A stretch of DNA of 64,000 bases from Myxococcota bacterium (GTDB taxonomy: Bacteria; Myxococcota_A; UBA9160; UBA6930): positions 1,024,001-1,088,000 of the forward strand of contig OZ245002.1 in the NCBI GenBank assembly GCA_965223415.1, given 5' to 3'. The translations under genes were made by a program, and so were the position numbers. The notes below the pieces were generated by a model. The model saw only the letters and a program-made list of their open reading frames with translations. It was not told where the DNA came from and ran no database searches. Numbering within the stretch: position 1 is the stretch's first letter; each line of letters starts with the position of its first letter. Shown one piece after another: positions 1 through 64,000 of the stretch.

Positions 1-801
1 ACGATAGGCGTAGTCGATCGCCGCCTGGCTGCTGGGAGAGGCACCGATCGCGCCGAGGGCCTCCTGCACGACGGCCGCGCCGTTCTCCGTGGCGTAGACC
101 ACCGCCTGGGCGAAGTCCGGGCCGAAGGCGACGAAGCTGTCGGCCACCTTGAGCGGCATGAACATCGCGCTTGGGGCCACGCCGGGCATCCCGCCGCCGT
201 TGTTCGCCTCGCCGGTGCTGTCCTCGGCCTCGCCGGTTCCGTGGCCGTAGTCGACGACGTCCTCCGGATCGTTGTCGCCGTCCGCGAAGTCCCAGCCCGC
301 GATGTCGTCGACGTAGCCATTGCGGTCGTCGTCGACACCGTCGGAGAAGGCGCGGATCAGGTCTTGCCCGTCGAGCAGCCCGTTGCCGTTGGCATCGGGC
401 AGGCCCGCGTAGTCGTCGACGGAGACGAAGCCGTCGCCGTTGCAGTCATGAACGGCGCATCCGGCCGGCGGCGGCAGCTCGTCGCGATTCAGCGCGACCT
501 TGCGGGCCACGTCGGCGGCATGCCAGCGGATGCCGCTGTCGAGCACGGCGACGACCACGTCGGGCCGACCGGTCGTCACCTGCCAGGCGGAGGGAACGTC
601 CATGCCGCTCCCGGCGTTGTACTTCCAGGCGCCGCCGGACGCCGGGTCGAAGTCGTCCGGGAGCTGGCCCGGGGGCAGGAAGAGGTAGGCGCCGAAGTCG
701 CGCGGATCGCTGCAGCCGGCGTCGGCGCAGGTCGGGAAGGGCACGTCCGCGGACGCCTGAGCGGCGAGGAGGAACAGGCAGAGCGGGAGCAGCAGGCGCA
801 T
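1..801 (-). CDS. Secreted S8 (subtilisin-like) serine peptidase, N-terminal part; runs off window start
   Basis: Hand translation from ATG at 801: signal peptide MRLLLPLCLFLLAAQASA, catalytic Asp motif VVVAVLDSG, DDDRNGYVDDIAGWDF and His motif YGHGT; Ca-binding-like DxNGDG/DxNGNG loops. Missing from the ORF track because it has no stop in the window. Confidence 0.85.
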   Translation of the reverse strand, partial: MRLLLPLCLFLLAAQASADVPFPTCADAGCSDPRDFGAYLFLPPGQLPDDFDPASGGAWKYNAGSGMDVPSAWQVTTGRPDVVVAVLDSGIRWHAADVARKVALNRDELPPPAGCAVHDCNGDGFVSVDDYAGLPDANGNGLLDGQDLIRAFSDGVDDDRNGYVDDIAGWDFADGDNDPEDVVDYGHGTGEAEDSTGEANNGGGMPGVAPSAMFMPLKVADSFVAFGPDFAQAVVYATENGAAVVQEALGAIGASPSSQAAIDYAYR

Positions 802-29233: not shown

Positions 29234-30391
29234 CTAGGTCGAAGCCGCTTCCGCGTCCTGGAACTCCCGACCCAGCCAGCGCACCTTGGGCGTGATGTAG
29301 GCCACCCAGCCGGCCAGGGCGGCGGCGACCGGAAGCGTCGGAAGCCAGGCGAAGGCGGCGATCCAGGCGCCCAGGAAGGCGACGAGCCGGACACCGGCCA
29401 GGGCGACGTGGGCGGTGGACTGGAACCCGCGACCGCTGAGGAACCACCCGTTCGCGACGAGGAGCGATGCGAAGAGGGGCCAGGGGATCCCGGTGGAATC
29501 GAGCGGCGGGTCCGTATCGAGCGGCGCATCCCCTGCGTCCGATGCGCTCCCGAGCGCGCTCTCGACCCGCGACCAGACGTGGGCCGCGGTCGGGCGCTCG
29601 GTCGCGCCACCCATGTTGTCGTGGGTGGGGACGCCCCTCCAGCGGTAGAGCACGCGACCGTCGCCGGCGAGCGCGAGCACGCCGGGCTGGAAGTAGCCCT
29701 TGGGATGTGTCGGCGTGAAGCCGCGACCTTCGCCGACACTCGCCTTCAGGAAGCCGAGGCGGGGGTTGGTGAAGAGGTCGATCCATCCGCGCTCGCGACA
29801 CGCGCCGACGATCTCGTGGTGGGGATCGCCGACGGCCTCGAAGTCCAACCTCCAATCGGTCGCCGCCCGCCCGGCCAGGGCCTGGGGCTCGCTCGAGATC
29901 GCGAAGATCTCGCCCCCTGCCGCGCGCACCGCGTCCGCGACGCCTTCGTCCACATAGCCCCGCAACTCGGAGCGACAGGGCGGTCACCAGTAGCCGCGGT
30001 AGAACACCAGGACGACGAAGGCGTGGCGGGCGAGGACCCCGTCCAACCATCCGCGCCGGGCACCGGGAGGCGGATCGAGCTCGGCGGGCGGCGCCCCCTC
30101 GTCGGCTCGGGGCGGATCCGCCTCGGCCGGGGTGACGTCGAAGCCGTCGCCGGCCCGGGCCACACGGAACGAGCGCTGCTCGCAGCGATCGCCGCCGCAC
30201 AGGATCAAGCGCAGCTCGCGCGGGCCCGCGGCGGCGAGCGCCACCTCCGGGTCCAGGATGCCCGTCACCTCGAAGGCGACGTCTTCCTGGCGGTTGAACC
30301 AGGCGAGCGCGGCCTCGACCTCGCCTCGCAGGGCCTCGGGGATGGTCTCCTGGACGGTGGTGATGGCGGGCTCCCTTCGACCGGCGAGCAT
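29234..30391 (-). CDS. Probable selenoprotein: thioredoxin/peroxiredoxin-like (AhpC/TSA-type) UxxC domain with N-terminal extension and C-terminal TM helices
   Basis: ORFs 29984..30643 and 29234..29965 are in frame; the junction reads VVLVFYRGYW-TGA-PPCRSEL (TGA at 29984-29986). GEIFAISSE, VGDP and QPGVLAL follow as in AhpC-like folds. A hairpin sits just 3' of the UGA. Confidence 0.8.
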
Positions 30392-43840: not shown

Positions 43841-44647
43841 TCAGCGGACGCGGGTTCGGCGGCGGCTTCGGCGCTGGGGATTGGCGGGGGTGTGGGTCGG
43901 CATTTCGCCGGGGCGCTGTTGCTTGCGGTAGCTCTCGCCCTCGATGACGAGCTGGTAGGCGTTGTGGGCGAGGCGGTCGAGGGCGCTCTGGGCCAGGATG
44001 GGGTCGTCGAAGAGGGGGATCCATTCCTCGATGGCGCGGTTGCTGGTGACGATCGTCGAAGCGCGGCGGTGGCGTTCGAGGACGACCTCGTAGAGATCGC
44101 TCGACTGCTCGGCGGAGAGGCGCCGGAGGCCGAAGTCGTCGAGGACGAGGAGGTCCGGGGCGAGGAGGCGTCGGAAGACCTTCTCGGTCGAGAGGTCGGC
44201 TCGCGACTGGTGGAGCCAGTGGAACATGCGGTCGACGCGGAGGAAGAGGACGTGGTGCCCGGCCCGGCAGGCGGCGTGTCCCAGGGCGGAGGCCAGGAAG
44301 GTCTTGCCCACGCCCACGGGGCCGAGCAGGATGACGTCCTCGTGGCGCTCGAGGAAGCCGAGGGAGAAGAGGTCCTTCACGCGATCGCGATCGAAGGTGA
44401 CGGGGGCATCCCAGTCGAAGGCCTCGAGGGTCTGCTCTTCCTCGAAGCCGGCGCGGGAAAGGCGCGTCTCGAGGTTCTTGTGGTCGCGGCGATCGACTTC
44501 GTCCTGAAGGACGAGCTCCAGGAGGTCGAGCTCAGGGAGCTTCGTCTTCCGGGTGTAGGCCACGCGATCGGGGAGCGTGGCCAGCATGCCCGAGAGCTTC
44601 AGGCGTTTGAGCAGGGTCTTGAGGGACGGGTTGATCTCGGTCGTCAT
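43841..44647 (-). CDS. istB: IS21 helper ATPase IstB
   Basis: GPVGVGKT, LLVLDDFG, TSNR, LDRLAHNA, GESYR. Confidence 0.95.
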   Translation of the reverse strand: MTTEINPSLKTLLKRLKLSGMLATLPDRVAYTRKTKLPELDLLELVLQDEVDRRDHKNLETRLSRAGFEEEQTLEAFDWDAPVTFDRDRVKDLFSLGFLERHEDVILLGPVGVGKTFLASALGHAACRAGHHVLFLRVDRMFHWLHQSRADLSTEKVFRRLLAPDLLVLDDFGLRRLSAEQSSDLYEVVLERHRRASTIVTSNRAIEEWIPLFDDPILAQSALDRLAHNAYQLVIEGESYRKQQRPGEMPTHTPANPQRRSRRRTRVR

Positions 44648-46244
44648 GGGGGGTGGTCTCCTTGTCGGGGTTGTCGTTGGGGTGGGTGAAGTGCCCTTGC
44701 GGGCGCAGGAAACGGGGCGGCAGGAGCAGGAGCTGTCCGGGGGTGCTGGGGTCGCCGAGCGGCTGGATGCCTTCGGCCACGATGCGTTCGAGGCGCTTCG
44801 TGTTGATGAGGTCGAAGGCGAGGGCCCTGCGGCAGCCGGCGTCGACGCGCGGCAGGCCGTACTTGTGGCCGAGGCGAAGCAGCTTCTGGGCCTGGCGGAG
44901 CTTGGACCAGGGGAAGGGGCCGGCCAGGAGCTTCTCGGCGAAGCGCCCAATGTGAGGCCCCTGGTCGCGCGCCTGGCGGATCGCCGCTTCCGGGTCCCGC
45001 ATGGCGTAGGGGGCACGCTCGGGCGGATAGTCGTGGTAGTCGGTGGAGCGGCAGCCAGGGTCCACGCGCTCGTGGGTCTTGATGCACTCGCCGTCGACGT
45101 ACATGCGGATGAGCTTCGAGTCGCCGCGAACCCAGACGCGCTTGCCCACGTGGCGGGTGGGCACGGTGTAGAAGGCCTTTTGGAACTGGACGTGGTGGTC
45201 GGGGTGGACCTTCGCCTCGGCCCAGGTGGGCGGATCGAAGCGCGGGCGCACGAGGGGCTGCAGAGCCGGCTTCTCCGTGTTCTCGAAGACGGCCAGGGGC
45301 CTCTTGCGCGTCGTCCCGTGAGTGCGCTGGCCGGCGACCTCCAGGCACCAGCGCGCGGCCTCGCGCTGCACGTGGTCGCGTCCCAGCCACTGCTCGCCAC
45401 GGAAGAAGCGCTCGCGCACGTACTGCACCTGGCGCTCGACGTGGGGCTTGCCCTTGGGATGCCGAGGCACGGCGGCATCGATGACGAAGCCGCGGTAGTG
45501 GGCGTACTCGGCGAAGGTGCGCTGGAAGATCGGCTCGTAGCGGTCGGCCTTCGTGACGGCCGCCTTCAGATTGTCCAGCACCACGCGCACCGGGACCCCG
45601 CCGAAGAACGCCCAGGCGTCCTCGAGCCCCTCGAGCAGATCGGGGAGCTTCTGGCCGTAGGTCACGTGGACGTACTGGTGGCGGCTATGGACGAGGGTGA
45701 CGATCAGGGCATGAACGGTGCGGCGGCGCCCGGTCTCCGGATCCCAGACCATGCCGAGGCGGCCGAAGTCGACCTCGGCGAGCTCGCCGGGGGCCACCGC
45801 CGCCATGCGCACCGTCACCCGGCGCCGGTCTTGGAACCCGCAGTGGCGGACCGCGAAGCGGTGGAGCGAGCTGTAGGGGACGCGCACGCCCTCGCGCCCG
45901 AGCAGGTCGTAGACCTTCGTCAGCCGCAGTCCTCGGCCACCCGCCTCGGGCTGGAGCCACGCTCGGATCCGGTCGGCATGCGGCGCCAGCTGCGCCTCGC
46001 TCTCTCCCGCGTCGCGCTGCGTGGGCACAGGCCGCACCCGAGCCGCCACCCCTTGGGCCAGGGCCTCATCCGGCTCCCTCGGCCCCCTGGCGACCCAGCC
46101 CAGCTCCCCGGCGACTTGCACGTAGCGCCGGATCGTCTTGCGCGTGTGCCCCGTGGCCCGCGCCATCGCCACCTGGCTCTCGCCTCGGTGCGCCCGGCGG
46201 AGCACCTCCAGAATCTCCCACATGCCGACCTCGCGATACGCCAT
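44532..46244 (-). CDS. istA: IS21 DDE transposase IstA
   Basis: PGELAEVDFG, FFGGVP, DNLK, PKGKPHVE, YTVP. Confidence 0.95.
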   Translation of the reverse strand: MAYREVGMWEILEVLRRAHRGESQVAMARATGHTRKTIRRYVQVAGELGWVARGPREPDEALAQGVAARVRPVPTQRDAGESEAQLAPHADRIRAWLQPEAGGRGLRLTKVYDLLGREGVRVPYSSLHRFAVRHCGFQDRRRVTVRMAAVAPGELAEVDFGRLGMVWDPETGRRRTVHALIVTLVHSRHQYVHVTYGQKLPDLLEGLEDAWAFFGGVPVRVVLDNLKAAVTKADRYEPIFQRTFAEYAHYRGFVIDAAVPRHPKGKPHVERQVQYVRERFFRGEQWLGRDHVQREAARWCLEVAGQRTHGTTRKRPLAVFENTEKPALQPLVRPRFDPPTWAEAKVHPDHHVQFQKAFYTVPTRHVGKRVWVRGDSKLIRMYVDGECIKTHERVDPGCRSTDYHDYPPERAPYAMRDPEAAIRQARDQGPHIGRFAEKLLAGPFPWSKLRQAQKLLRLGHKYGLPRVDAGCRRALAFDLINTKRLERIVAEGIQPLGDPSTPGQLLLLPPRFLRPQGHFTHPNDNPDKETTPHDDRDQPVPQDPAQTPEALGHAGHAPRSRGLHPEDEAP

Positions 46245-46589
46245 CTGCCTGCGCCTCCTCTGGCGCCGCAGAATGGCCTGGGTCGGCCACGGGACCGGCC
46301 TCCTCCTGAGCCCCCCCCATCTGGGGTGGGTCATGCTCGTGAGAAAACCGCGGTCAGGCCTGGGTCATGCCCGTGAGAAAAGGTGAGTCATGCCCGTGAG
46401 AAATGACACGCCCATTGCCGCCGGCCGCGCCTCCATCGCGCGACTTCAAAGCGGTGACGCGGACTGACCCCTGCTGGCAGTGCAGGGGAGTGCACCGGGG
46501 TGCAGAGAACGGTCGTCTGGAAGGCACCAGGTCCGCGGACGGCACTGGACGGCGCCTCCGAGGGAGAAGAAGTCCTGCCCACGTTCGCC

Positions 46590-54373: not shown

Positions 54374-54570
54374 GGCGCCGATTCGAACCGAGGAGACCAC
54401 TGCACGCTCACTTCGATGCGGGGCGACGTGGTGCCTGTCGAGGGACGTCATCTCTTGCGCGCTAAGAGGACGGCTAGTTTTGCGCACCCCCCTGGGTTGA
54501 TGTTCGGTTCTTCCTTCTTCTCTTCCGCTCTCCGAAGGAGAGCACGGCCGTCAGGCCGCCCTCTGGGGCC

Positions 54571-55371
54571 TCAACGCTGGGCGCTTTGCCCCGCGGCCTG
54601 CTCGAGCTCGCGGAGCCGGTAGCTCCGCCCCGAGATGTTGAGCACCTGGCTGTGGTGGAGGAGGCGATCGAGGATGGCGGTGGCCAGCACCTCGTCGCCC
54701 GCCAGCACCTCGGGCCAGTCGGCGATGCCCTTGTTCGTGGTGATCAGGATCGAGCCCCTCCCATAGCGGTAGGAGACGAGCCGGAAGAAGAGGCTCGCCT
54801 CCTGGCGCGTCATGGGCTCGAAGCCGACCTCGTCGATGACGAGGAGCGCCACGTTCATGTGCTTGCGCCGCCGCAGCCGTTGCGGGCTGATCTCGGCGTC
54901 GCGCTTGAGGGCCGCCAGCAGGTCCTCGAGGCGATGGAAGGCCACGGAGAAGCCGTTCTCCACGGCCCGCACCCCCAGGGCCACCGCCAGGTGGGTCTTG
55001 CCCACTCCCGGCGGACCCTGGATCAGCAGACTCTCCTTGGCCCGGATCCACGCGCAGGTGCCCAGCGTCTCGATCCGGCTCCGCTCCACACTCGGCTGGA
55101 AGGCGAAGTCGAAGTTGCCGAGGGTCTGCCCCGTGGGAAGGCCCGAGAGACGGAGCGAGGTCTTCATCCTCCGCTCCTCGCGGTGCTGCAGCTCGGCCTC
55201 GAGCAGCAGGTCGAGGAAGCGGTGGGGCACGAGGTCGTCCTTGGTCGCTCGGGCCAGCTCCTCGCCGATGTGCTCGGCCGCGTGATGGAGGCCGAGGCGC
55301 ACGAGCCGCTCGCGGGTCGGGTCGAGATCCACCTTGCCGCCCTTCTTGGGCACCGGGTTTCCCGCCGTCAT
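54571..55371 (-). CDS. istB: IS21 IstB ATPase
   Basis: GPPGVGKT, LLVIDEVG, TTNK, ILDRLLHH, GRSYRL. Confidence 0.95.
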   Translation of the reverse strand: MTAGNPVPKKGGKVDLDPTRERLVRLGLHHAAEHIGEELARATKDDLVPHRFLDLLLEAELQHREERRMKTSLRLSGLPTGQTLGNFDFAFQPSVERSRIETLGTCAWIRAKESLLIQGPPGVGKTHLAVALGVRAVENGFSVAFHRLEDLLAALKRDAEISPQRLRRRKHMNVALLVIDEVGFEPMTRQEASLFFRLVSYRYGRGSILITTNKGIADWPEVLAGDEVLATAILDRLLHHSQVLNISGRSYRLRELEQAAGQSAQR

Positions 55372-56654
55372 CGCGCCACCTCCGCCAGATCGGCATAGAG
55401 GTCGATCGGCCGCTGCTCCGGCTCCATCGCCCACAGCTCCTGGAGGCGTCGACCCATGCGCCCGAGCGGTACGGGCGCCTCCACCCCCTCCGTGCTCGGC
55501 CCCTCGTAGTGGCTCGGGTCCAGCAGCAGGCGGCTTCGCGTGTGGCGCGGGTGCGCGGCCACCACCGAGCCCTCGGCCCAGACCTGCACCTGCCGGGCGC
55601 AGCCGCGCACCTCGACGCTCTGCTCGACGAAGCGGAAGGGGACGCTGTAGGTACGCCCCTCGAAGCGCACCGTGGCGTCGCGCCCGACACGTCGCATCAC
55701 GGCCAGGTCGAAGGGCTCGGGAAGCCGCTCGGGCAGGGCCCCGAGATGGGGCTTCTCCGCCTCCCACGCCTGGAAGACCGTCGTGCCCGTCGCCGGGCAC
55801 TGCCGCCGGTGGCTCGAGCGCGCCACCTGGCCGTCCGTCCACGCTTGCAGCGACTCCAGGCTCTCGTGCTCCCGCCGACGCGGATCGAAGCCCCGCCGGT
55901 GCCCCAGGATCCGACGCTCCACCTTCCCCTTCTCCTGCGGCTGGCGGGGACGGGTGGCGTCCACGTGGAAGCGAAGGGCCCCGGCATAGCTCGCGTAAGC
56001 CGGGTTCACCGTCCCCCATGGCCCCGCCCCCTTCGCCACCGCTGTCTTCACGTTGTCGACCCGCAGCACCGCCGGCACCCCGCCCAGCCGCTCGAAGGCC
56101 CGGTTGTGCACGTCCAGCCACGCCAGCGTGTCCGCCCGCTCCGACCACACCACCGCTTCTCGCCGCGAGTGCGAGAGCACCAGGTGGAAGGCATGCAGGT
56201 CCACCTCCTGGCCCCCGATCCGCACGCCCGGAAACTCGCCCCAGTCCACCTGACCCTGCGCCCCGGGCGGTGTCTCCACCCGACGCCGGCTCCGCACCTT
56301 CGGTCTCGGGAACCGGGCCCGCACGTACCGCTGCACGCTCTTGGAGCTCCCCGTGTACCCGTGCTCCTCCACCAGGAACTCGTGAAGCTCCTGCAGGTTC
56401 ACGCCACGGCCTCCCGAGCTCGCCTCCAGCCACTCCGCGATCACCTCGTGGACCGCCTCGGCCAGGAAGGGCTTCCCGCTCCGGCCGTCTCGCGCCCCCT
56501 CCGCCAGCCGCTTCAGCCGGTAGCGCACCGCGCTCTCCCGGATCCCCAGCTGGCGGGCGATCTCCCGGTTCGAGCACCCCCGCTCGTGCAGCACTTCGAT
56601 CGTCATCACTTCCTCCTGCCTCAGTCGCCGCTGCCCCACGCCCCCCTCCCTCAC
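55368..56654 (-). CDS. istA: IS21 IstA transposase (start approximate)
   Basis: ETPPGAQGQVDWG, LGGVP, DNVK, PQEKGKVE, YSVP. Confidence 0.95.
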   Translation of the reverse strand: MREGGVGQRRLRQEEVMTIEVLHERGCSNREIARQLGIRESAVRYRLKRLAEGARDGRSGKPFLAEAVHEVIAEWLEASSGGRGVNLQELHEFLVEEHGYTGSSKSVQRYVRARFPRPKVRSRRRVETPPGAQGQVDWGEFPGVRIGGQEVDLHAFHLVLSHSRREAVVWSERADTLAWLDVHNRAFERLGGVPAVLRVDNVKTAVAKGAGPWGTVNPAYASYAGALRFHVDATRPRQPQEKGKVERRILGHRRGFDPRRREHESLESLQAWTDGQVARSSHRRQCPATGTTVFQAWEAEKPHLGALPERLPEPFDLAVMRRVGRDATVRFEGRTYSVPFRFVEQSVEVRGCARQVQVWAEGSVVAAHPRHTRSRLLLDPSHYEGPSTEGVEAPVPLGRMGRRLQELWAMEPEQRPIDLYADLAEVAR

Positions 56655-56737
56655 GGGGAACGTGCCGCGCAGCGGCTCAACAGGAGGTGCGCAAATCTAC
56701 GTGTCCTCTTAGCCCTCGAATATCACGTCCTGCGACA

Positions 56738-56843
56738 AAAGATGAGCGACGGTCCCATACTCGAGCGAGATGTAGAGCACACCCTCGTCGAGAGACTGCG
56801 GGATCTCGGTCACGAACGCATGCGAGATCTGCTCTACTCGCAC
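56738..56843 (-). pseudogene. DUF6527-family protein N-terminus truncated by IS21
   Basis: GTG at 56843 overlaps the ThiF gene end: MRVEQISHAFVTEIPQSLDEGVLYISLEYGTVAHL, then the IS end; matches the recalled DUF6527 start FVxxIPxxLxxGVLYIS...HLC. Confidence 0.75.
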
Positions 56844-58015
56844 TCCTCGTCCTCGCTGACCAGGAGATTCACGTCGAGCGTATACGTCGTCGAGTGTTCG
56901 CGTTCCAGGTCTCGGTAGAACCCGAGGAGCTTCTTCCAGCGAATCACCGCCATCGCTGCGTTCAGGGCGTTCAGCTCGGCGATCTGGATGTTGCTTCGGT
57001 AGGCGTCATCCTCGACTGCAGCATCCAACGAGACCCGCTTTCGGAAGTGCTCTCGTTTTGCTGGCGTGCTCGTCGTCGTGCGGACGACACCTCCCAGCTG
57101 GCCTTCATCGAGCTCGAGGCCAATGCCGACGTCGACGAAGGCGATTTCCTGGTCCTCGAGGTAGGCCACGATCGGTGCCTTTGCAGCGCCATCGTCGATA
57201 CAGAGGAAGACGAAGTCCACACCTGCCAGCTCACCCACGTTCGACTGATCGAGCGCGATCTCGTGGGGCACTATGCGACGGTGCATGCTCGAGTAGAGGC
57301 GGTGATGGTGCGTCACCTTGGCCGGGCCCTCCCGCAGGGTCTCTAGCGATGGAGCACCTGGCGCTCGGAATGCGTTGTGGGTGAAAAAGCGGTCGGGATC
57401 GAAAATGTGAATCTCCCTAACCGGGGTCTTCGCCGCGAAGTCGAGTACGTACGCCCCGCTCCCGCCGACGCCGACGATGGCGATCCGCTGCCGCTCCAGC
57501 TTGCTCGTCACCTCGACGATCCCAGCCCGGGCGGACGCCGTTTCGGGGTAGCGAAACGGCGACTCCGCGGGGGCCTCGCTCGGACGGAACGTCTTGGGTG
57601 TGGCCGTTCGGTCGAGTGAGGCGGCCGGGCCCGAGAGGATGGTTGCATAGGTATCGAACTTCGCGAAGTAGTCCGGGTACCCGCCCGGAGGCTTGTTGGA
57701 GAAAGAGTGTCTCGCAACCAAGTCGTCGGCGATCGTCGTGCTTGCCCGACCGTGCTCGATCCCGGTGATCGGCTTGCCGGAGGCATGACACGGATGATGC
57801 TCTCCCGTGAACATCATCACGTGCGTGCTCGGTCTACCTGTTCGATCTCCGCTAAGTGTGAGCTCTGAGACGAGGGCGCCGCGTGCGACTGTCCGGTCCC
57901 GGGTCACGTACGGCACGTTGTCGACAACGATGTGGCCCGATCGGATCGAGACCTCATAGCCCTCGTCAACGAGGCGCTGCAGATCAGGGCTAAGACTTAT
58001 CAGTGCGTGTGACAT
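56834..58015 (-). CDS. ThiF/E1-like adenylyltransferase with N-terminal DUF6791-like domain
   Basis: N-domain SPDLQRLVDEGYEV...VPYV...FSNKP..Y.DY..K; C-domain IAIVGVGGSG, FDPD..HNAFRAPG, FVFLCID, DVGIG, NIQIAELNALNA. Confidence 0.88.
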   Translation of the reverse strand: MSHALISLSPDLQRLVDEGYEVSIRSGHIVVDNVPYVTRDRTVARGALVSELTLSGDRTGRPSTHVMMFTGEHHPCHASGKPITGIEHGRASTTIADDLVARHSFSNKPPGGYPDYFAKFDTYATILSGPAASLDRTATPKTFRPSEAPAESPFRYPETASARAGIVEVTSKLERQRIAIVGVGGSGAYVLDFAAKTPVREIHIFDPDRFFTHNAFRAPGAPSLETLREGPAKVTHHHRLYSSMHRRIVPHEIALDQSNVGELAGVDFVFLCIDDGAAKAPIVAYLEDQEIAFVDVGIGLELDEGQLGGVVRTTTSTPAKREHFRKRVSLDAAVEDDAYRSNIQIAELNALNAAMAVIRWKKLLGFYRDLEREHSTTYTLDVNLLVSEDEECE

Positions 58016-58253
58016 TGAAGATCATTCCGTCCTTGACCTTCACAGCCTCGCCCTCCACGAGCGTCCCTTCGCGCTTGCCACCCGGGCCGCGCTTGAAGGT
58101 GACGGTGAAGCAGATGAAGCCGCCCTGGGTCTGCCCCGGGAAGGCGATGTCGACGACCTCGGCGAACGTCAGCTCCTCCTTCTTGGGCAGCTGGTGACGC
58201 CGTCCGTTGACGATGATGGTCACGGTCTTCTCGCAGTCGCTGTGCTTGTTCAT
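57990..58253 (-). CDS. Multiubiquitin-family ubiquitin-like (beta-grasp) protein, single domain
   Basis: VTIIVNGR, LTFAEVVDIAFP, TVTFKRGP, GTLVEGEAVKVKDGMIFNVTRTDKS*; AAAGGAG RBS. Confidence 0.85.
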   Translation of the reverse strand: MNKHSDCEKTVTIIVNGRRHQLPKKEELTFAEVVDIAFPGQTQGGFICFTVTFKRGPGGKREGTLVEGEAVKVKDGMIFNVTRTDKS

Positions 58254-58346
58254 TTCCGGCTCTCCTTTATGATCCTGCGCTCCATGAGCGCGTGCATGCG
58301 TGTCAGCGTGCATGCGGACACTTTAGCGAAGAAAGGACGCGGCCGC

Positions 58347-59075
58347 CTAGAGACGAGCCTGCCCCCGGGGGGAGGCGCATGCCAGGCCCTGGAGTCGGAT
58401 GCTTGCGGCCTGCTTTGACACTGTGAAGCGCCGCGCGACCTCTTCGACCAGCTTCTTGAGCCCCTCCGAATCCGGCTCGAGGGGCAGGGACAAGGTGAGC
58501 CGCTCGGACTCTTGCTCGACCACGGTCAGCATTGTGGGCTTCGGCATCAGCAAGGAGCCGATCGCCTTGTTCGCCTGGACCTCCCGCCAGTCGCTGCCGC
58601 CGCTGTAGCCGACGTCGCGCTTCAGGCACCGCATCAGCTGGGGTGTGTTCGGGCGGTGCCCCGTCTCCGAGCTGTTGAACAAGCCGCGCTGCATCTCATC
58701 GAGCTCGTAGAGAATGCGGTGCAGCAGCGCGTGGCCGATCTCGTGTGCCACGGTCGCGCGCCACCGTCCTTTCGTTCCGCCGGTAGCGTCGTCGGCATCG
58801 AAGGCCCCCGTAAGATCGCGGTTGATCTCGATGCGCGGCGGCTTGCCAGAGCAGAAGTGGGTCACGCCGAGCACGTCGGGATCGAGATCCGCGTGCTGGT
58901 CAAAGGGGAAGCGCAGATGGCGTTCGATCAGCCGCTCCAGATCGACCGTCACGTCGTTGGAGTTGGGGTCCGGCATGAGGCTCGCCTTGTCGAGCTCATC
59001 GACCATGATCTGGTCGATCTCGGAGGGCTCGTACCAGAGCTTCCGCTCCCTGCCGGGGGCTCTGTACTCTCTCAT
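58347..59075 (-). CDS. ImmA/IrrE-family Zn metallopeptidase
   Basis: RWRATVAHEIGHALLH, EVQAN...LLMP, FTVSKQAASIRL. Confidence 0.9.
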   Translation of the reverse strand: MREYRAPGRERKLWYEPSEIDQIMVDELDKASLMPDPNSNDVTVDLERLIERHLRFPFDQHADLDPDVLGVTHFCSGKPPRIEINRDLTGAFDADDATGGTKGRWRATVAHEIGHALLHRILYELDEMQRGLFNSSETGHRPNTPQLMRCLKRDVGYSGGSDWREVQANKAIGSLLMPKPTMLTVVEQESERLTLSLPLEPDSEGLKKLVEEVARRFTVSKQAASIRLQGLACASPRGQARL

Positions 59076-59440
59076 TTCGACTTCTTCTCTCTATCCCTCG
59101 CGAGCTGTTCGACTTTCTTCTCGAGCTTTCCGAGCTCTTCTGGTGACAACTTGCTCTCGGAGACCTTGCGAAACAGAGTTACGGCCTGCGGGACGTTTTC
59201 CACGTACTTCTCGGTTACCTCGTAGACCTTGCCTGCTTGCACCATTAGATCATCGAAATCGAGGCGTAGGTGCTTCGCCAAGGAGCGGAGCAACTCCTCA
59301 GATGGCACGCGGCGATCGTTTTCGATGTCACTTAGGTGTGTCGGAGAGATGCTGAGCAACTTGGCCAGCTCCCGTAGACCGTAGTCGGTCGTCTCGACGC
59401 GCGCGGTGTGTAGGCGAGCGCCTAAACTTGCTTTCGGCAC
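59072..59440 (-). CDS. XRE-family HTH regulator
   Basis: LRELAKLLSISPTHLSDIENDRRVPS; ATGA overlap with the peptidase gene. Confidence 0.9.
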   Translation of the reverse strand: MPKASLGARLHTARVETTDYGLRELAKLLSISPTHLSDIENDRRVPSEELLRSLAKHLRLDFDDLMVQAGKVYEVTEKYVENVPQAVTLFRKVSESKLSPEELGKLEKKVEQLARDREKKSK

Positions 59441-59605
59441 TGGGACCTCTTTCGTTCGCTTGTCAGCGTACAGGTGCTCGCTCAGGGTTGCAACGAACGG
59501 GCCTGGGGGCCCCAGTTCGGCTGGGCAATCTCAGCCGCAACTTCGGCGAGGCCGCCGCGACCACTGGTCTCCCCTGGGGGAATCGAGTGAGTTACGTATC
59601 CTTAC

Positions 59606-60274
59606 GTGGCTTTGGCCTACACCAAGCGAATAGTCTGTTTGGCGAAATCGAAGAAGCTGGGCGCCACTTGCGTCGCGGGGCTTGAGTGGAACGGAACTGC
59701 TCGAGGCGAGTGGATCCGGCCGGTGGGAGACCGGCCTTCCGAGGCGATCGTGGACGAGGAGATGGACTTCGAGGGTGGCGGGCAGGCTTCGCTCCTCGAC
59801 GTCGTCGAGATCGACTTCCTTGAACATCGGCCGCACGCTTGCCAGACCGAGAATCACCTGATCACCGACGATCATTGGTGGAGAAAGGTGGGTGAGCTGA
59901 GCCCGCGGAAGCTACGGCGACTCGCCGACCAGCCGCCAGACCTCTGGGGAACGGACAACCACGGCTATATCCGGGATCGAATTCCAATCGCGGAAGCAGA
60001 CGCTCTACCGTCATCGCTGCTGCTTGTTCGGCTCGAGTCGCCAAGCGTCGAGGTGCGACGATGGCCTGAGCGGACCACTGTGCGCGTGGACTTCGACTAC
60101 AACGGCGTTCACTACAATATGGCGGTGACGGATCGGGCCTTCAAGAAGCGTTTCGTAGCAAAGGGTGCCGGTGACTACCCCCTCGCGACCGAGACGTATG
60201 CCTGTCTCTCATTGGGTGAACCGAACGACGGGTACCGCTTCAAGCTGGCGGCCGCCGTTTTCGAGTTGGACTAA
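59606..60274 (+). CDS. Dual OB-fold domain protein
   Basis: KRIVCLAKSKK...CVAG...WIRPV, LLDVVEI, QTEN, YNMAVTD, CLSLGEP, KLAAAV. Confidence 0.75.
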   Translation: MALAYTKRIVCLAKSKKLGATCVAGLEWNGTARGEWIRPVGDRPSEAIVDEEMDFEGGGQASLLDVVEIDFLEHRPHACQTENHLITDDHWWRKVGELSPRKLRRLADQPPDLWGTDNHGYIRDRIPIAEADALPSSLLLVRLESPSVEVRRWPERTTVRVDFDYNGVHYNMAVTDRAFKKRFVAKGAGDYPLATETYACLSLGEPNDGYRFKLAAAVFELD

Positions 60275-60279
60275 CGGCG

Positions 60280-60906
60280 ATGCCGAGAGATTTGTTCACG
60301 ATTGGCCACTCCTCGCACCCGTTGCCCACCTTCCTAGGGCTTCTGAAGGAACATGGCATTGAGGTGGTGTGTGATGTGCGCTCAAGTCCCTACAGCGGCC
60401 GAAATCCCCAATTCAATCGCGATGCGCTCCAGAAGGACTTGGCAGCACGGTTCGTGAAGTACGTATTTCTTGGCAATGAACTCGGAGCTCGCAGCGAAGA
60501 CCCAAGCTGTTACGTCGATGGTCAGGCTCGCTACGAGCGAATCGCCAAGACGGCGATCTTCCAGTCGGGTCTCGAGAGAGTGCTCAAGGGTGTCGAGTCC
60601 TTCCGAGTCGCACTGATGTGCGCAGAGGCTGATCCGCTCACCTGTCACCGCACGATCTTGGTTTGCCGGGAGTTGAGAAACTCACGCCTCTCGATTGCGC
60701 ATGTTCTCTCCAATGGAAAGCTCGAATCCCACGCAGACGCTGAAGACCGGTTGCTCCGCATGACCAAGCTTGAAAACGGCGACTTGTTCCGCGGGCGTTC
60801 TGAGCTTCTCGACGAGGCCTACGGTGTTCAGGGGAGAAAGATTGCCTATAGGCGTCCTACGGACGGGACGAGAGCCTCTCACCCGCGCTCCGAGGTGCTC
60901 CGGTGA
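60280..60906 (+). CDS. DUF488-family protein
   Basis: FTIGHS, DVRSSPYS, PQFN, ELGAR, LMCAEADPLTCHR. Confidence 0.9.
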   Translation: MPRDLFTIGHSSHPLPTFLGLLKEHGIEVVCDVRSSPYSGRNPQFNRDALQKDLAARFVKYVFLGNELGARSEDPSCYVDGQARYERIAKTAIFQSGLERVLKGVESFRVALMCAEADPLTCHRTILVCRELRNSRLSIAHVLSNGKLESHADAEDRLLRMTKLENGDLFRGRSELLDEAYGVQGRKIAYRRPTDGTRASHPRSEVLR

Positions 60907-61343
60907 AGGTGTTCTCGATCGGGTTCACGAAGACGACGGCAGAGAGGTTCTTCGGGCGGCTCGCCGATGCGGGTGTTCGTAGAGTGATTGACGTCAGGCT
61001 CAACAACAGGTCCCAGCTCGCGGGCTTCGCGAAGCGAGACGACCTCAAGTTCTTTCTGATGGCCTTGGGCGACATCCAGTACGTCCACGAACCGATGCTC
61101 GCTCCTACGCAGGACATCCTGGACGCGCTCAAGAAGCACAAGGGTCAATGGGAAGACTATGAGCGGGCGTTTCTTGCGCTGATGCGTGAGCGGCGGATTG
61201 AAGAGAAGCTAGAAGCGAGTCTATTCGACCGCGCGTGCCTTCTTTGCAGCGAGGACCAGCCGCACCACTGCCATCGCCGGCTCGTTCTTGAATACCTTGC
61301 TGAGGCGTGGCCTGAAGCCGACCTGGAAGTGCTCCACCTCTAG
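60903..61343 (+). CDS. DUF488-family protein (second paralogue)
   Basis: SIGFT, IDVRLNNRSQLAGFAK, LAPT, LLCSEDQPHHCHRRLV; GTGA overlap. Confidence 0.9.
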   Translation: MKVFSIGFTKTTAERFFGRLADAGVRRVIDVRLNNRSQLAGFAKRDDLKFFLMALGDIQYVHEPMLAPTQDILDALKKHKGQWEDYERAFLALMRERRIEEKLEASLFDRACLLCSEDQPHHCHRRLVLEYLAEAWPEADLEVLHL

Positions 61344-61425
61344 GTGCTCTTGTTCGGCACGCCGGCGCGGACCTTCTCTCCGTGCGCCAATCGGGACGCG
61401 GGTCTACCTCTGTTGGACGCATCAA

Positions 61426-61760
61426 GTGGGTGAGCCGAAGCTGCACCACTACGTGCCCCGCTTCTATCTTCGGCGGTTCGCTGATCCCTCGGGACGTCTG
61501 TGGCTATGGGACCGACATGAGGACCGCATCTTCGCCGCTAGTCCAAACAACGTCGCAGCAGAAAGGCACTTCTATCGTCTAACAGAATTGGTTCAGCAAG
61601 GTCTCGACCCGCTCACGATGGAGAAACAGTTCTCCGATCTCGAGGGCGAGGTTGCGCGAATCTCGAATCAGTGGTTGGACTGGCTGCGGCACATGGAGCC
61701 GAGAGAGAAGATCGAGATCCCCTCAGCGAATCGGGAAATCCTCTCGCTGTACATCGCCCT
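61426..61760 (+). pseudogene. DUF4238-family protein truncated by an IS21 end
   Basis: HHYVPRFYLRRF, AERHFY, EKQFSDLE; the frame runs into IS terminal repeats at about 61760. Confidence 0.75.
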
Positions 61761-62604
61761 CGGTGATCACCTCAAAGCCGGCCATATGTGAACGTCTCAA
61801 AGCCGGCCATAGGTGACTGCCCAGGAGGTGTTCTTCTACCGCGCCGCGGGCTCCTTCTGCAAGGCCGTTCCCTTTCGTGTGCGCCAGCTCCGGGGTCCGC
61901 ATTTGAGGATGTGTCCGTGGTGGAGGAGTCGATCGAGCATCGCGGTCACGGCCGCCGTGTCGCCGAGGAGGCGGCCCCAGTCGTCCACGGGCCGGTTCGA
62001 GGTGACGAGGGTGCTGGCGCGCTCGTAGCGGCGCATGATGAGCTCGAGGAGATCCTCGGCGGCCGTGGTGGGGAGCTTTCTCATGCCGAGGTCGTCGAGG
62101 AGGAGCAGCGGCACGCTGGCCATCTCGGTGAGGTAGCTCTTGCGCTCGCCGTCGAGCGTGGCATCGGCGAGCTCTTCGAGCAGCACGTGCACCTCGCGGT
62201 AGGCGGCGCGGTGGCCCTGGTGGATCGCAGCGAGGCCAATGGCCTGGGCCAGGTGGCTCTTGCCGCTGCCCGGCGGGCCAAGAAGGACCGCGTCCTCCGC
62301 GCGCGTGACGAAGCGTCCGGTGGCGAGCTCGAAGACGAGGGCGCGATCGATCTTCGGGTTGAAGGCGAAGTCGAAGCCGTCGAGGGTCTTGTGGGCATCG
62401 CGGAAGCGGGCCTGTTTGATGCGGCGCGCGAGCAGGCGATCCTGGCGCCGCTGGAGCTCGTCCTGGACCAGGGCGGAGAGGAGATCGATCGGGGGCCACT
62501 GGCTCTTCTGGGCCTCGAGCAGACGCATCTCCAGATGCTCGGCCATGCCCGAGAGGCGAAGCTTGCGGAGCGCCGGGTCGAGCTCGGTCATCTTCACGAG
62601 GGGT
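61760..62604 (-). mobile_element. IS21-family element, type C, partial (one end + istB; interrupted by type B copy 2)
   Basis: Tandem ~25-bp terminal repeats GTGATCACCTCAAAGCCGGCCATAT / GTGAACGTCTCAAAGCCGGCCATAG (61763-61812); exact end uncertain. Confidence 0.8.
61836..62591 (-). CDS. istB: IS21 IstB ATPase (third type)
   Basis: GPPGSGKSH, LLLDDLG, TSNR, MLDRLLHH. Confidence 0.93.
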   Translation of the reverse strand: MTELDPALRKLRLSGMAEHLEMRLLEAQKSQWPPIDLLSALVQDELQRRQDRLLARRIKQARFRDAHKTLDGFDFAFNPKIDRALVFELATGRFVTRAEDAVLLGPPGSGKSHLAQAIGLAAIHQGHRAAYREVHVLLEELADATLDGERKSYLTEMASVPLLLLDDLGMRKLPTTAAEDLLELIMRRYERASTLVTSNRPVDDWGRLLGDTAAVTAMLDRLLHHGHILKCGPRSWRTRKGTALQKEPAAR

Positions 62605-62687
62605 TGTCGCAGGACGTGATATTCGAGGGCTAAGAGGACACGTAGATTTGCGCACCTCCTGTTGAGCCGCTGCGCGGCACGTTCCCC

Positions 62688-63974
62688 GTGAGGGAGGGGG
62701 GCGTGGGGCAGCGGCGACTGAGGCAGGAGGAAGTGATGACGATCGAAGTGCTGCACGAGCGGGGGTGCTCGAACCGGGAGATCGCCCGCCAGCTGGGGAT
62801 CCGGGAGAGCGCGGTGCGCTACCGGCTGAAGCGGCTGGCGGAGGGGGCGCGAGACGGCCGGAGCGGGAAGCCCTTCCTGGCCGAGGCGGTCCACGAGGTG
62901 ATCGCGGAGTGGCTGGAGGCGAGCTCGGGAGGCCGTGGCGTGAACCTGCAGGAGCTTCACGAGTTCCTGGTGGAGGAGCACGGGTACACGGGGAGCTCCA
63001 AGAGCGTGCAGCGGTACGTGCGGGCCCGGTTCCCGAGACCGAAGGTGCGGAGCCGGCGTCGGGTGGAGACACCGCCCGGGGCGCAGGGTCAGGTGGACTG
63101 GGGCGAGTTTCCGGGCGTGCGGATCGGGGGCCAGGAGGTGGACCTGCATGCCTTCCACCTGGTGCTCTCGCACTCGCGGCGAGAAGCGGTGGTGTGGTCG
63201 GAGCGGGCGGACACGCTGGCGTGGCTGGACGTGCACAACCGGGCCTTCGAGCGGCTGGGCGGGGTGCCGGCGGTGCTGCGGGTCGACAACGTGAAGACAG
63301 CGGTGGCGAAGGGGGCGGGGCCATGGGGGACGGTGAACCCGGCTTACGCGAGCTATGCCGGGGCCCTTCGCTTCCACGTGGACGCCACCCGTCCCCGCCA
63401 GCCGCAGGAGAAGGGGAAGGTGGAGCGTCGGATCCTGGGGCACCGGCGGGGCTTCGATCCGCGTCGGCGGGAGCACGAGAGCCTGGAGTCGCTGCAAGCG
63501 TGGACGGACGGCCAGGTGGCGCGCTCGAGCCACCGGCGGCAGTGCCCGGCGACGGGCACGACGGTCTTCCAGGCGTGGGAGGCGGAGAAGCCCCATCTCG
63601 GGGCCCTGCCCGAGCGGCTTCCCGAGCCCTTCGACCTGGCCGTGATGCGACGTGTCGGGCGCGACGCCACGGTGCGCTTCGAGGGGCGTACCTACAGCGT
63701 CCCCTTCCGCTTCGTCGAGCAGAGCGTCGAGGTGCGCGGCTGCGCCCGGCAGGTGCAGGTCTGGGCCGAGGGCTCGGTGGTGGCCGCGCACCCGCGCCAC
63801 ACGCGAAGCCGCCTGCTGCTGGACCCGAGCCACTACGAGGGGCCGAGCACGGAGGGGGTGGAGGCGCCCGTACCGCTCGGGCGCATGGGTCGACGCCTCC
63901 AGGAGCTGTGGGCGATGGAGCCGGAGCAGCGGCCGATCGACCTCTATGCCGATCTGGCGGAGGTGGCGCGATGA
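62688..63974 (+). CDS. istA: IS21 IstA transposase
   Basis: 428-aa translation identical to 55368..56654. Confidence 0.95.
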   Translation: MREGGVGQRRLRQEEVMTIEVLHERGCSNREIARQLGIRESAVRYRLKRLAEGARDGRSGKPFLAEAVHEVIAEWLEASSGGRGVNLQELHEFLVEEHGYTGSSKSVQRYVRARFPRPKVRSRRRVETPPGAQGQVDWGEFPGVRIGGQEVDLHAFHLVLSHSRREAVVWSERADTLAWLDVHNRAFERLGGVPAVLRVDNVKTAVAKGAGPWGTVNPAYASYAGALRFHVDATRPRQPQEKGKVERRILGHRRGFDPRRREHESLESLQAWTDGQVARSSHRRQCPATGTTVFQAWEAEKPHLGALPERLPEPFDLAVMRRVGRDATVRFEGRTYSVPFRFVEQSVEVRGCARQVQVWAEGSVVAAHPRHTRSRLLLDPSHYEGPSTEGVEAPVPLGRMGRRLQELWAMEPEQRPIDLYADLAEVAR

Positions 63975-64000
63975 CGGCGGGAAACCCGGTGCCCAAGAAG
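63971..64000 (+). CDS. istB: IS21 IstB, first codons only
   Basis: ATG ACG GCG GGA AAC CCG GTG CCC AAG AAG = start of the copy 1 IstB. Confidence 0.9.
   Translation, partial: MTAGNPVPKK

Follow-up and report, generated by a model that had tools for sequence, protein, structure and literature searches.

A probable Type II Bub operon of a Myxococcota bacterium with a bubE gene cut short by an IS21-family element

Can a bacterial ubiquitination-like operon do without a separate ubiquitin-conjugating (E2) enzyme? The question is raised by a group of genes on the minus strand of a 64,000-nt stretch of DNA from a Myxococcota bacterium (GenBank assembly GCA_965223415.1, contig OZ245002.1, positions 1,024,001 to 1,088,000), referred to below as the window. 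An earlier note, made from the letters alone, described there a small ubiquitin-like protein (Ubl), a larger protein that joins an N-terminal domain to a ThiF-type activating (E1) domain, and a following DUF6527 gene, and suggested that the operon might be a stripped-down variant of Bub in which the fused N-terminal domain accepts the Ubl. Our analysis indicates that the locus is most probably a five-gene unit, capH-capP-bubA-bubBD-bubE', that belongs to the published Type II Bub (6E.2) systems and in which an insertion sequence (IS) of the IS21 family has destroyed the last gene. All five genes lie on the minus strand in this order (Table 1); the order itself, the domain families, the conservation of the catalytic residues, the E1 fold and the truncation are direct observations. 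The locus is a new, damaged member of Bub, a type of system that has already been described, biochemically tested and structurally characterised.

Operons formerly known as 6E or DUF6527 were renamed Bub by Ye et al. (bioRxiv 10.1101/2024.11.21.623953), whose preprint comes from the same laboratory as that of Gong et al. (bioRxiv 10.1101/2024.11.21.623966). As set out in the text of Ye et al., who aligned 400 unique BubBD proteins, a Type II operon encodes the Ubl BubA, the E2-E1 fusion BubBD and the DUF6527 protein BubE, and is "typically" devoid of a JAB peptidase. The same text reports that BubA and BubBD of Escherichia coli ZDHYS365, supplied with ATP, form conjugates in vitro without BubE, and that the conjugates are abolished by R219A (adenylation), Y342F (crossover-loop tyrosine) and S106A (E2 serine). 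The window resembles the E. coli operon in its gene order and gene overlaps, in a Multi_ubiq Ubl ending in TDKS, in the fusion of DUF6791 and ThiF with the same Ser/Arg/Tyr set, in a DUF6527 gene directly downstream, in having no JAB gene and in its association with CapH and CapP. It differs in that its BubA has one beta-grasp domain while the E. coli BubA has three, in that bubE is cut after codon 35, and in that capH and capP stand on the strand of the operon. The Multi_ubiq, DUF6791-ThiF and DUF6527 matches bear out the assignment to a Bub/DUF6527-type operon made in the earlier note.

Table 1. Features of the Bub locus and its surroundings in the window (coordinates in nt of the window unless given as residues; conservation counted over 140 aligned BubBD sequences).
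Feature	Position	Strand	Basis or remarks
Five consecutive open reading frames (ORFs)	56739-59440	minus	ORF list of the 64,000-nt window
capH-like XRE helix-turn-helix (HTH) repressor gene, 122 aa	59072-59440	minus	HTH_31 E 4.6e-11, HTH_3 E 1.2e-10
capP-like M78/ImmA-IrrE zinc metallopeptidase gene, 242 aa	58347-59075	minus	Peptidase_M78 PF06114 E 2.6e-06
capP-bubA spacer, 93 nt	58254-58346	minus	bubA ribosome-binding site AAGGAG, GCATGCACGC direct repeat, 9-mer ACGCTGACA
bubA, single beta-grasp Ubl, 87 aa, ending TDKS	57990-58253	minus	Multi_ubiq PF14452 E 4.9e-16
bubBD, E2-E1 fusion, 393 aa	56834-58015	minus	DUF6791 and ThiF Pfam matches
BubBD E2-like DUF6791 domain	residues ~1-160		His65, Ser106, Lys108
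BubBD ThiF-type adenylation domain	residues ~165-393		GxGxxG 182-187, Arg217, Lys233, Asp274, crossover-loop Tyr339
BubBD His65	residue 65		conserved 140/140
BubBD Ser106	residue 106		conserved 138/140; other two Cys
BubBD Lys108	residue 108		conserved 126/140
BubBD Arg217	residue 217		conserved 140/140
BubBD Lys233	residue 233		conserved 140/140
BubBD Asp274	residue 274		conserved 133/140
BubBD Tyr339	residue 339		conserved 140/140
bubE', first 35 codons of DUF6527 serine-protease gene	56739-56843	minus	GTG start 56843
IS21-family copy 1, truncates bubE	54436-56738	minus	Pfam rve, Mu-transpos_C_2, IstB_IS21
istA of copy 1	55368-56654	minus	rve, Mu-transpos_C_2
istB of copy 1	54571-55380	minus	IstB_IS21 E 1.5e-71
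IS21-family copy 2, inverted, runs off window	62604-64000	plus	identity to copy 1
Different IS21-family element, its istB	61836-62591	minus	cut 13 nt upstream of istB by copy 2
DUF4238 gene (PF14022, profile positions 2-102 of 281)	in 61288-62604		cut near 61770-61790 by second, different IS21-family element
Third IS21-family element	43841-46334	minus	IstB_IS21 E 1.2e-60; Mu-transpos_C_2 E 2.4e-16
Three-gene candidate defence system PDC-M45	59606-61343	plus	PADLOC; divergent from capH

Part of the evidence comes from BubBD. Residues 10-159 match DUF6791 (PF20590, E = 6.8e-55) and residues 168-306 match ThiF (PF00899, E = 3.6e-10). With E ≤ 1e-5 as the limit, 3957 of the 8000 candidates that were scored are relatives of the protein; another search, run without a word index, returned 1978 representatives at 50% clustering. 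The protein aligns over its full length with relatives of 390-395 residues. All 120 of the relatives listed carry PF20590 and 119 of them also PF00899, the nearest one other than BubBD itself being 77% identical. DUF6791 is the Bub E2 domain, an identity that follows directly from this architecture; the literature searched holds no paper that ties the Pfam name DUF6791 to it. The motifs quoted in the earlier note are present (GVGGSG at residues 182-187, FSNKP at 105-109, HPCH at 74-77), the only cysteines are residues 76, 272 and 392, and, as had been stated, the 393-residue sequence contains no CxxC pair.

Conservation of individual residues was counted in an alignment of the window BubBD with 139 full-length representatives, 38-52% identical (n = 140), and a second alignment (A2) gave the same invariant residues. 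By position and invariance, Ser106, Arg217 and Tyr339 in all likelihood correspond to S106, R219 and Y342 of E. coli BubBD; Ser106 bears the very number of the E. coli E2 serine, and Arg217 and Tyr339 are offset from R219 and Y342 by two and three positions. We infer that Lys108 and His65 are the Lys/His pair that accompanies the E2 serine in Type II Bub. The two homologues with cysteine at the Ser106 position may be thioester users in an otherwise oxyester family.

Further evidence was drawn from 80 related loci encoding relatives of the 393-residue protein, taken from one-genome-per-species contigs; they are the best 80 of a scan in which 594 of 600 candidate stretches were confirmed. Four of them (L002-L005) are near-duplicates of a fifth (L001) and were left out of the counts over 76 loci. 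The longest ORF over bubA runs from 57990 to 58313 (107 residues), and because AAGGAG stands 8 nt upstream of the internal ATG at 58253, we place the start there, which gives a protein of 87 residues, the length stated in the earlier note. The claim of a single beta-grasp Ubl whose gene overlaps that of an N-domain-ThiF protein is confirmed: the bubA and bubBD frames overlap by 26 nt, and exactly this overlap recurs in every related locus that allowed its measurement (64 of 64). Over its whole length BubA aligns with the final beta-grasp domain of the BubA of E. coli ZDHYS365 (PDB 9cd2, E = 1.9e-9), and the two share the TDKS terminus. A C-terminal serine is found in all 71 related loci with a BubA match (TDKS in 33, TVQS in 29, other endings in 9). 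The phrase "terminal serine" occurs nowhere in the main text of Ye et al., as distinct from its figures and supplements, and that main text does not comment on activation of a Ubl at a C-terminal serine instead of glycine. Having one beta-grasp domain makes BubA ordinary, since the text of Gong et al. gives this form for 218 Bub Ubls (40%).

That DUF6527 follows holds for the start of the gene, of which only 35 codons remain before the IS. The GTG start of bubE' overlaps the bubBD stop by 10 nt, and the frame continues from the native codons through 9 codons of IS DNA to a stop at 56709. Pfam gives no match for the 35-residue fragment, which reaches only about five residues into the 63-position DUF6527 model, and the fragment was identified by tblastn against the related loci. 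It matches residues 1-35 of the ORF directly downstream of the bubBD homologue in 79 of the 80 (the exception is L066), at 41-69% identity. These downstream ORFs have a median length of 145 residues, and all 75 that were scanned (L002-L005 omitted) are DUF6527 (PF20137), with the Pfam domain beginning at residue ~22-34. The fragment ends right before the Cys-rich zinc motif, and both the C4 zinc site and the Ser-His dyad are absent. Searching the 64-kb window by tblastn with the 79 intact BubE ORFs yielded no credible match to the rest of the gene, nor was a remnant found, by eye or by tblastn, in the 62 nt that separate the end of the IS from the stop of a LysR gene. The best candidate for the remainder, at 29663-29860 (E = 0.003), lies inside an unrelated ORF of 243 residues and was judged a chance match. 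Some 110 codons of bubE are either gone or now lie outside the window. We read bubE' as damage to a Type II Bub member in which the gene was once present, and not as a sign of non-membership.

The two genes upstream of bubA, which lie within the span covered by the earlier note and were left undescribed there, are a CapH/CapP-like regulator pair with reading frames overlapping by 4 nt. The first matches the PADLOC capH profile with E = 1.9e-13 over positions 2-101 of 103, and the second carries HEIGH, an HExxH motif, at residues 111-115. Lau et al. (bioRxiv 10.1101/2022.04.27.489752) describe CapH as repressing its own operon up to its cleavage by CapP, which single-stranded DNA activates; their text relates the pair to DdrO/IrrE and ImmR/ImmA, reports it with 6e systems, and places capH and capP upstream and on the opposite strand in all operons found. 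According to the text of Ye et al., CapH and CapP together accompany 168 of 544 Bub operons. Like the pairs of CBASS (antiphage systems that signal through cyclic oligonucleotides) and other defence operons, the window pair consists of adjacent XRE HTH and M78 HExxH genes upstream of a defence-type operon; it differs from the pairs of Lau et al. in strand and in the extent of the capP match.

How common the same-strand arrangement is was assessed in the 76 loci, where 93 upstream ORFs of 170-420 residues were compared with PADLOC capP at E ≤ 1e-5. A match was found in 26 loci, on the opposite strand in 24 and on the same strand in two (L023 and L044), and tblastn with the window's own proteins added same-strand pairs in L015 and L056. 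The total of capP-bearing loci, 28 of 76, is in line with the published 31%, and the same-strand order is a minority arrangement observed in the window and four other species. In the spacer between capP and bubA, a direct repeat of GCATGCACGC (58290-58315, minus strand) flanks the 9-mer ACGCTGACA, which occurs on the minus strand at 58301-58309 and again at 59461-59469, just upstream of capH. Two occurrences in the window compare with 0.35 expected, and 6 of 100 shuffles also reached two. The 9-mer and the spacer hint at a CapH operator or an internal promoter and are candidates only.

The fold of BubBD points in the same direction as its sequence. The AlphaFold2 (AF2) model has a mean predicted local distance difference test score (pLDDT) of 95.7, and its top eight fold matches in the PDB are all Citrobacter BubCD (E = 5e-15 to 8e-14); UBA5, MccB and MoeB come next. 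The entries 9ea4, 9ea5, 9ea8, 9eae and 9eav were released on 2025-09-24, and 9cd2 is also available. BubCD belongs to the Type I Bub (6E.1) system BubAB-BubCD-BubE of Citrobacter sp. RHBSTW-00271, whose adenylation domain is the closest solved fold to that of the window protein. As in the window, a crossover-loop tyrosine and an E2 serine replace the cysteines and DUF6527 is the partner. In Type I, however, it is the Ubl that carries the E2 as its fusion partner; a JAB domain joined to the E1 sets this E2 free, and glycine is the last residue of the Ubl. In the window the E2 is joined to the E1, no JAB domain is present and the last residue of the Ubl is serine.

Several observations weigh against our reading and are considered together here. 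The isolated N-terminal domain was modelled with a pLDDT of 86 as a helix, a four-strand meander, a loop and a second helix, and Foldseek with this model gave no match at E ≤ 0.001 among 500. Citrobacter BubB (9eae_C) ranked second in that search, with the best TM-scores (0.46/0.55), yet with E = 0.25; Atg3 and several UBC enzymes ranked below it with low probability. A sequence profile of the domain compared with PDB sequences returned no E2 and nothing relevant. The E2 assignment is thus adopted from the text of Ye et al., and the E2 fold of the domain stays putative in these searches. The equivalence of Ser106, Arg217 and Tyr339 with the E. coli residues was drawn from position and invariance. 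On the side of the regulators, the PADLOC capP match (E = 5.9e-10) is confined to the peptidase core, the sole PDB sequence match of the peptidase, CapP 7t5t, is weak (E = 0.34) and lies around the HExxH motif, the pair stands on the strand of the operon contrary to the text of Lau et al., and the promoter scan detected no sigma-70-like promoter. The broken bubE and the IS elements on both sides suggest that the operon may be decaying rather than working, and, by the text of Ye et al., no Bub operon has so far been found to protect E. coli from phage. A predicted complex of BubA with the BubBD adenylation domain (score 0.12 against a mark of 0.32) carries no weight either way.

If the locus is a Type II Bub operon, its chemistry can be outlined from homology with the E. 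coli and Citrobacter systems, the only ones for which ATP-dependent conjugation through oxyesters is known; how the operon is regulated, and whether it acts against phages, we likewise infer. In a BubBD dimer, the ThiF-type half would bind BubA and adenylate its C-terminal Ser87, using Arg217, Asp274 and the GxGxxG loop. Tyr339 of the crossover loop would then attack the adenylate to give a BubA~Tyr oxyester, and BubA would be passed to Ser106 of the N-terminal DUF6791 domain with the assistance of the conserved Lys108 and His65, and finally to a lysine on a target. Ye et al. predict in their text that the Ser106-type E2 domain acts from the opposite BubBD protomer. The DUF6791 domain would itself serve as the E2, making a separate one unnecessary, and no JAB processing peptidase should be needed, because BubA ends natively at its reactive residue. 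An intact BubE would cleave BubA-target conjugates and act as a negative regulator; the Citrobacter Type I BubE is described by Ye et al. as a Ser-His protease that removes BubA conjugates. Since bubE' stops before the zinc cysteines and the Ser-His dyad, conjugation would have no dedicated reversal if the operon were expressed. The in vitro behaviour of E. coli BubA and BubBD leads us to predict that the conjugation half is competent and checked only by CapH. CapH probably keeps expression off up to its cleavage by CapP, which single-stranded DNA or DNA damage would activate. An antiphage role of the window operon is presumed from its context.

An involvement of an IS insertion had been suspected, and an IS21-family element does cut bubE. 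The end of this copy near bubE is set by the boundary of the repeat, and its far end is put at ~54436 on the strength of an imperfect terminal inverted repeat that was picked out by eye. The 1397 nt at 55342-56738 recur, inverted and with 100% identity, at 62604-64000, where a second copy begins 5.9 kb away. No target-site duplication was seen in the flanks of the element that cuts bubE, and a simple inversion between the two copies was rejected since the flanks do not match. The end of the second, different IS21-family element, which cuts the DUF4238 gene, bears a direct repeat of CTCAAAGCCGGCCATA. The 5-kb segment with the Bub operon is bracketed by IS21-family elements. A third element of the family lies ~8 kb upstream, and the region is rich in IS.

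One reading of these data is that the insertion inactivated the system and that the other genes have fallen out of expression and use and are heading for loss. This is a tangible possibility, if on the unlikely side. It agrees with the truncation of a gene that, in the text of Ye et al., is said to be present in all Bub operons, and with the bracketing of the segment by elements that also cut the DUF4238 gene. The missing target-site duplication and the missing remainder of bubE suggest further rearrangement, and the G+C content of 56739-61770 (0.59-0.64) is lower than that of the upstream DNA (0.66-0.67). On the other hand, the genes capH, capP, bubA and bubBD have kept their full length and all conserved residues, the event is recent because the two IS copies are identical over 1397 nt, and the E. 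coli proteins conjugate in vitro without BubE.

These last points lead us to speculate that the locus could be a natural bubE-null Type II Bub system, in which bubA, bubBD and the CapH/CapP switch are intact and BubA, after de-repression by DNA damage, would conjugate without a dedicated protease, an idea that we regard as doubtful. Since bubE' stops before the zinc cysteines and the Ser-His dyad, conjugation would have no dedicated reversal if the operon were expressed. The in vitro behaviour of E. coli BubA and BubBD leads us to predict that the conjugation half is competent and checked only by CapH.

The stripped-down variant proposed in the earlier note, a new minimal Bub in which an uncharacterised N-terminal domain has taken over Ubl acceptance in place of a missing E2, appears very improbable. 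Its starting point was correct, in that the ORF list and the Pfam scan reveal no standalone E2, Prok-E2 or JAB gene in the operon, and Pfam offers only a DUF name for the N-terminal domain, to which the PDB profile search gives no E2 link. The acceptor role of the fused domain is likewise supported. However, the fusion of DUF6791 with ThiF is what defines the Type II Bub of the Ye et al. text, with 400 unique proteins and a tested S106A substitution; BubBD of the window agrees with it in architecture and in these residues, and the 120 listed relatives share the former. The arrangement is the norm and not a reduction. The possibility that intact homologues always keep an E2 gene that was lost here with the IS insertion fared no better: clustering of 614 ORFs within ~3 kb on either side of the operon in the 76 loci gave no recurrent gene downstream of BubE, the only recurrent families being BubA, BubE, CapP-like peptidases and antisense shadows. 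Because no downstream family besides DUF6527 recurs, nothing is missing from the window operon apart from most of bubE. A conjugative plasmid of Shinella shows the same layout in its RefSeq annotation, with multiubiquitin, ThiF and DUF6527 genes in a row and unrelated genes at the flanks.

A sulfur carrier of the ThiS/MoaD-ThiF/MoeB type, serving cofactor or thiocarboxylate biosynthesis rather than protein conjugation, has a next to negligible probability: it would fit the ThiF match, and so would the fact that the adenylation domain counts MoeB, MccB and TcdA-type enzymes among its relatives in structure and sequence, but BubA ends in Ser and not in Gly-Gly, a CxxC zinc site is absent, BubCD provides the closest structures, DUF6527 is a conserved protease partner, and the context is one of defence genes. 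Genes for thiamine or molybdopterin were not seen when ~10 kb on each side were inspected coarsely, in agreement with the earlier note. A thioester-based Bil or Type II CBASS (Cap2) system is hardly credible either, given that the PADLOC E1-E2 (Cap2-type) models that match BubBD (best E = 1.3e-09) span only the adenylation region, residues ~156-313, that the catalytic positions are Ser106 and Tyr339 rather than Cys, and that the ORF list and Pfam scan show no JAB peptidase or CD-NTase gene nearby. Cap2 and Bil do resemble this locus in that a C-terminus is the substrate of an E2 and an E1 and in that the setting is one of defence, and Cap2, like BubBD, is an E2-E1 fusion; they differ in using cysteine thioesters and a JAB peptidase, neither of which is found at this locus, and Cap2 conjugates a CD-NTase and not a Ubl, a feature without counterpart here.

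The Type II Bub operon stands in a neighbourhood with other defence genes. Its flanks of ~10 kb hold IS21, GMC oxidoreductase, SDR, SnoaL, LysR and defence genes. Divergent from capH lie the genes of a DuOB protein (PF22557, E = 4.1e-59) and of two DUF488 proteins, for which PADLOC gives matches to PDC-M45A, B and C with E = 3.2e-65, 4.8e-80 and 7.3e-69. Together with Bub, this candidate system makes the IS-bracketed 5-kb segment a small defence island. Elsewhere in the family there are indications of mobility. Of the 128 plasmid records that bear relatives of BubBD, 96 are mobilizable or conjugative, and the five near-duplicate loci (L001-L005), from assemblies that are placed in different genera (Xanthobacter, Bosea, Bradyrhizobium and two Bradyrhizobiaceae metagenome-assembled genomes), differ by 46-60 mismatches over 13,164 bp that include the Bub locus and its flanks, which points to a recently spread mobile element. 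Megablast of the window's own 5-kb segment against plasmids gave a single match of 66 nt and nothing more.

What is particular to this locus is the destroyed bubE, the same-strand capH and capP, and the IS21-bracketed segment beside the PDC-M45 candidate. For discovery it matters little, as the description and biochemical testing of the architecture date from 2024 and the release of structures from 2025. Its value is in part one of annotation: DUF6791 is corrected to the Bub E2 domain, DUF6527 to the BubE protease, and the upstream pair to CapH/CapP-like regulators. Small points for work on Bub are the invariant C-terminal serine of Type II BubA, the conserved 26-nt overlap of bubA and bubBD, the minority same-strand placement of CapH/CapP, and a natural bubE knockout. 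If the locus is indeed a bubE-null Bub system, it would offer a ready-made genetic background for trapping and identifying Bub targets, and the co-directional capH-capP-bubA order would mean that the regulators and the conjugation machinery are induced as one transcript.

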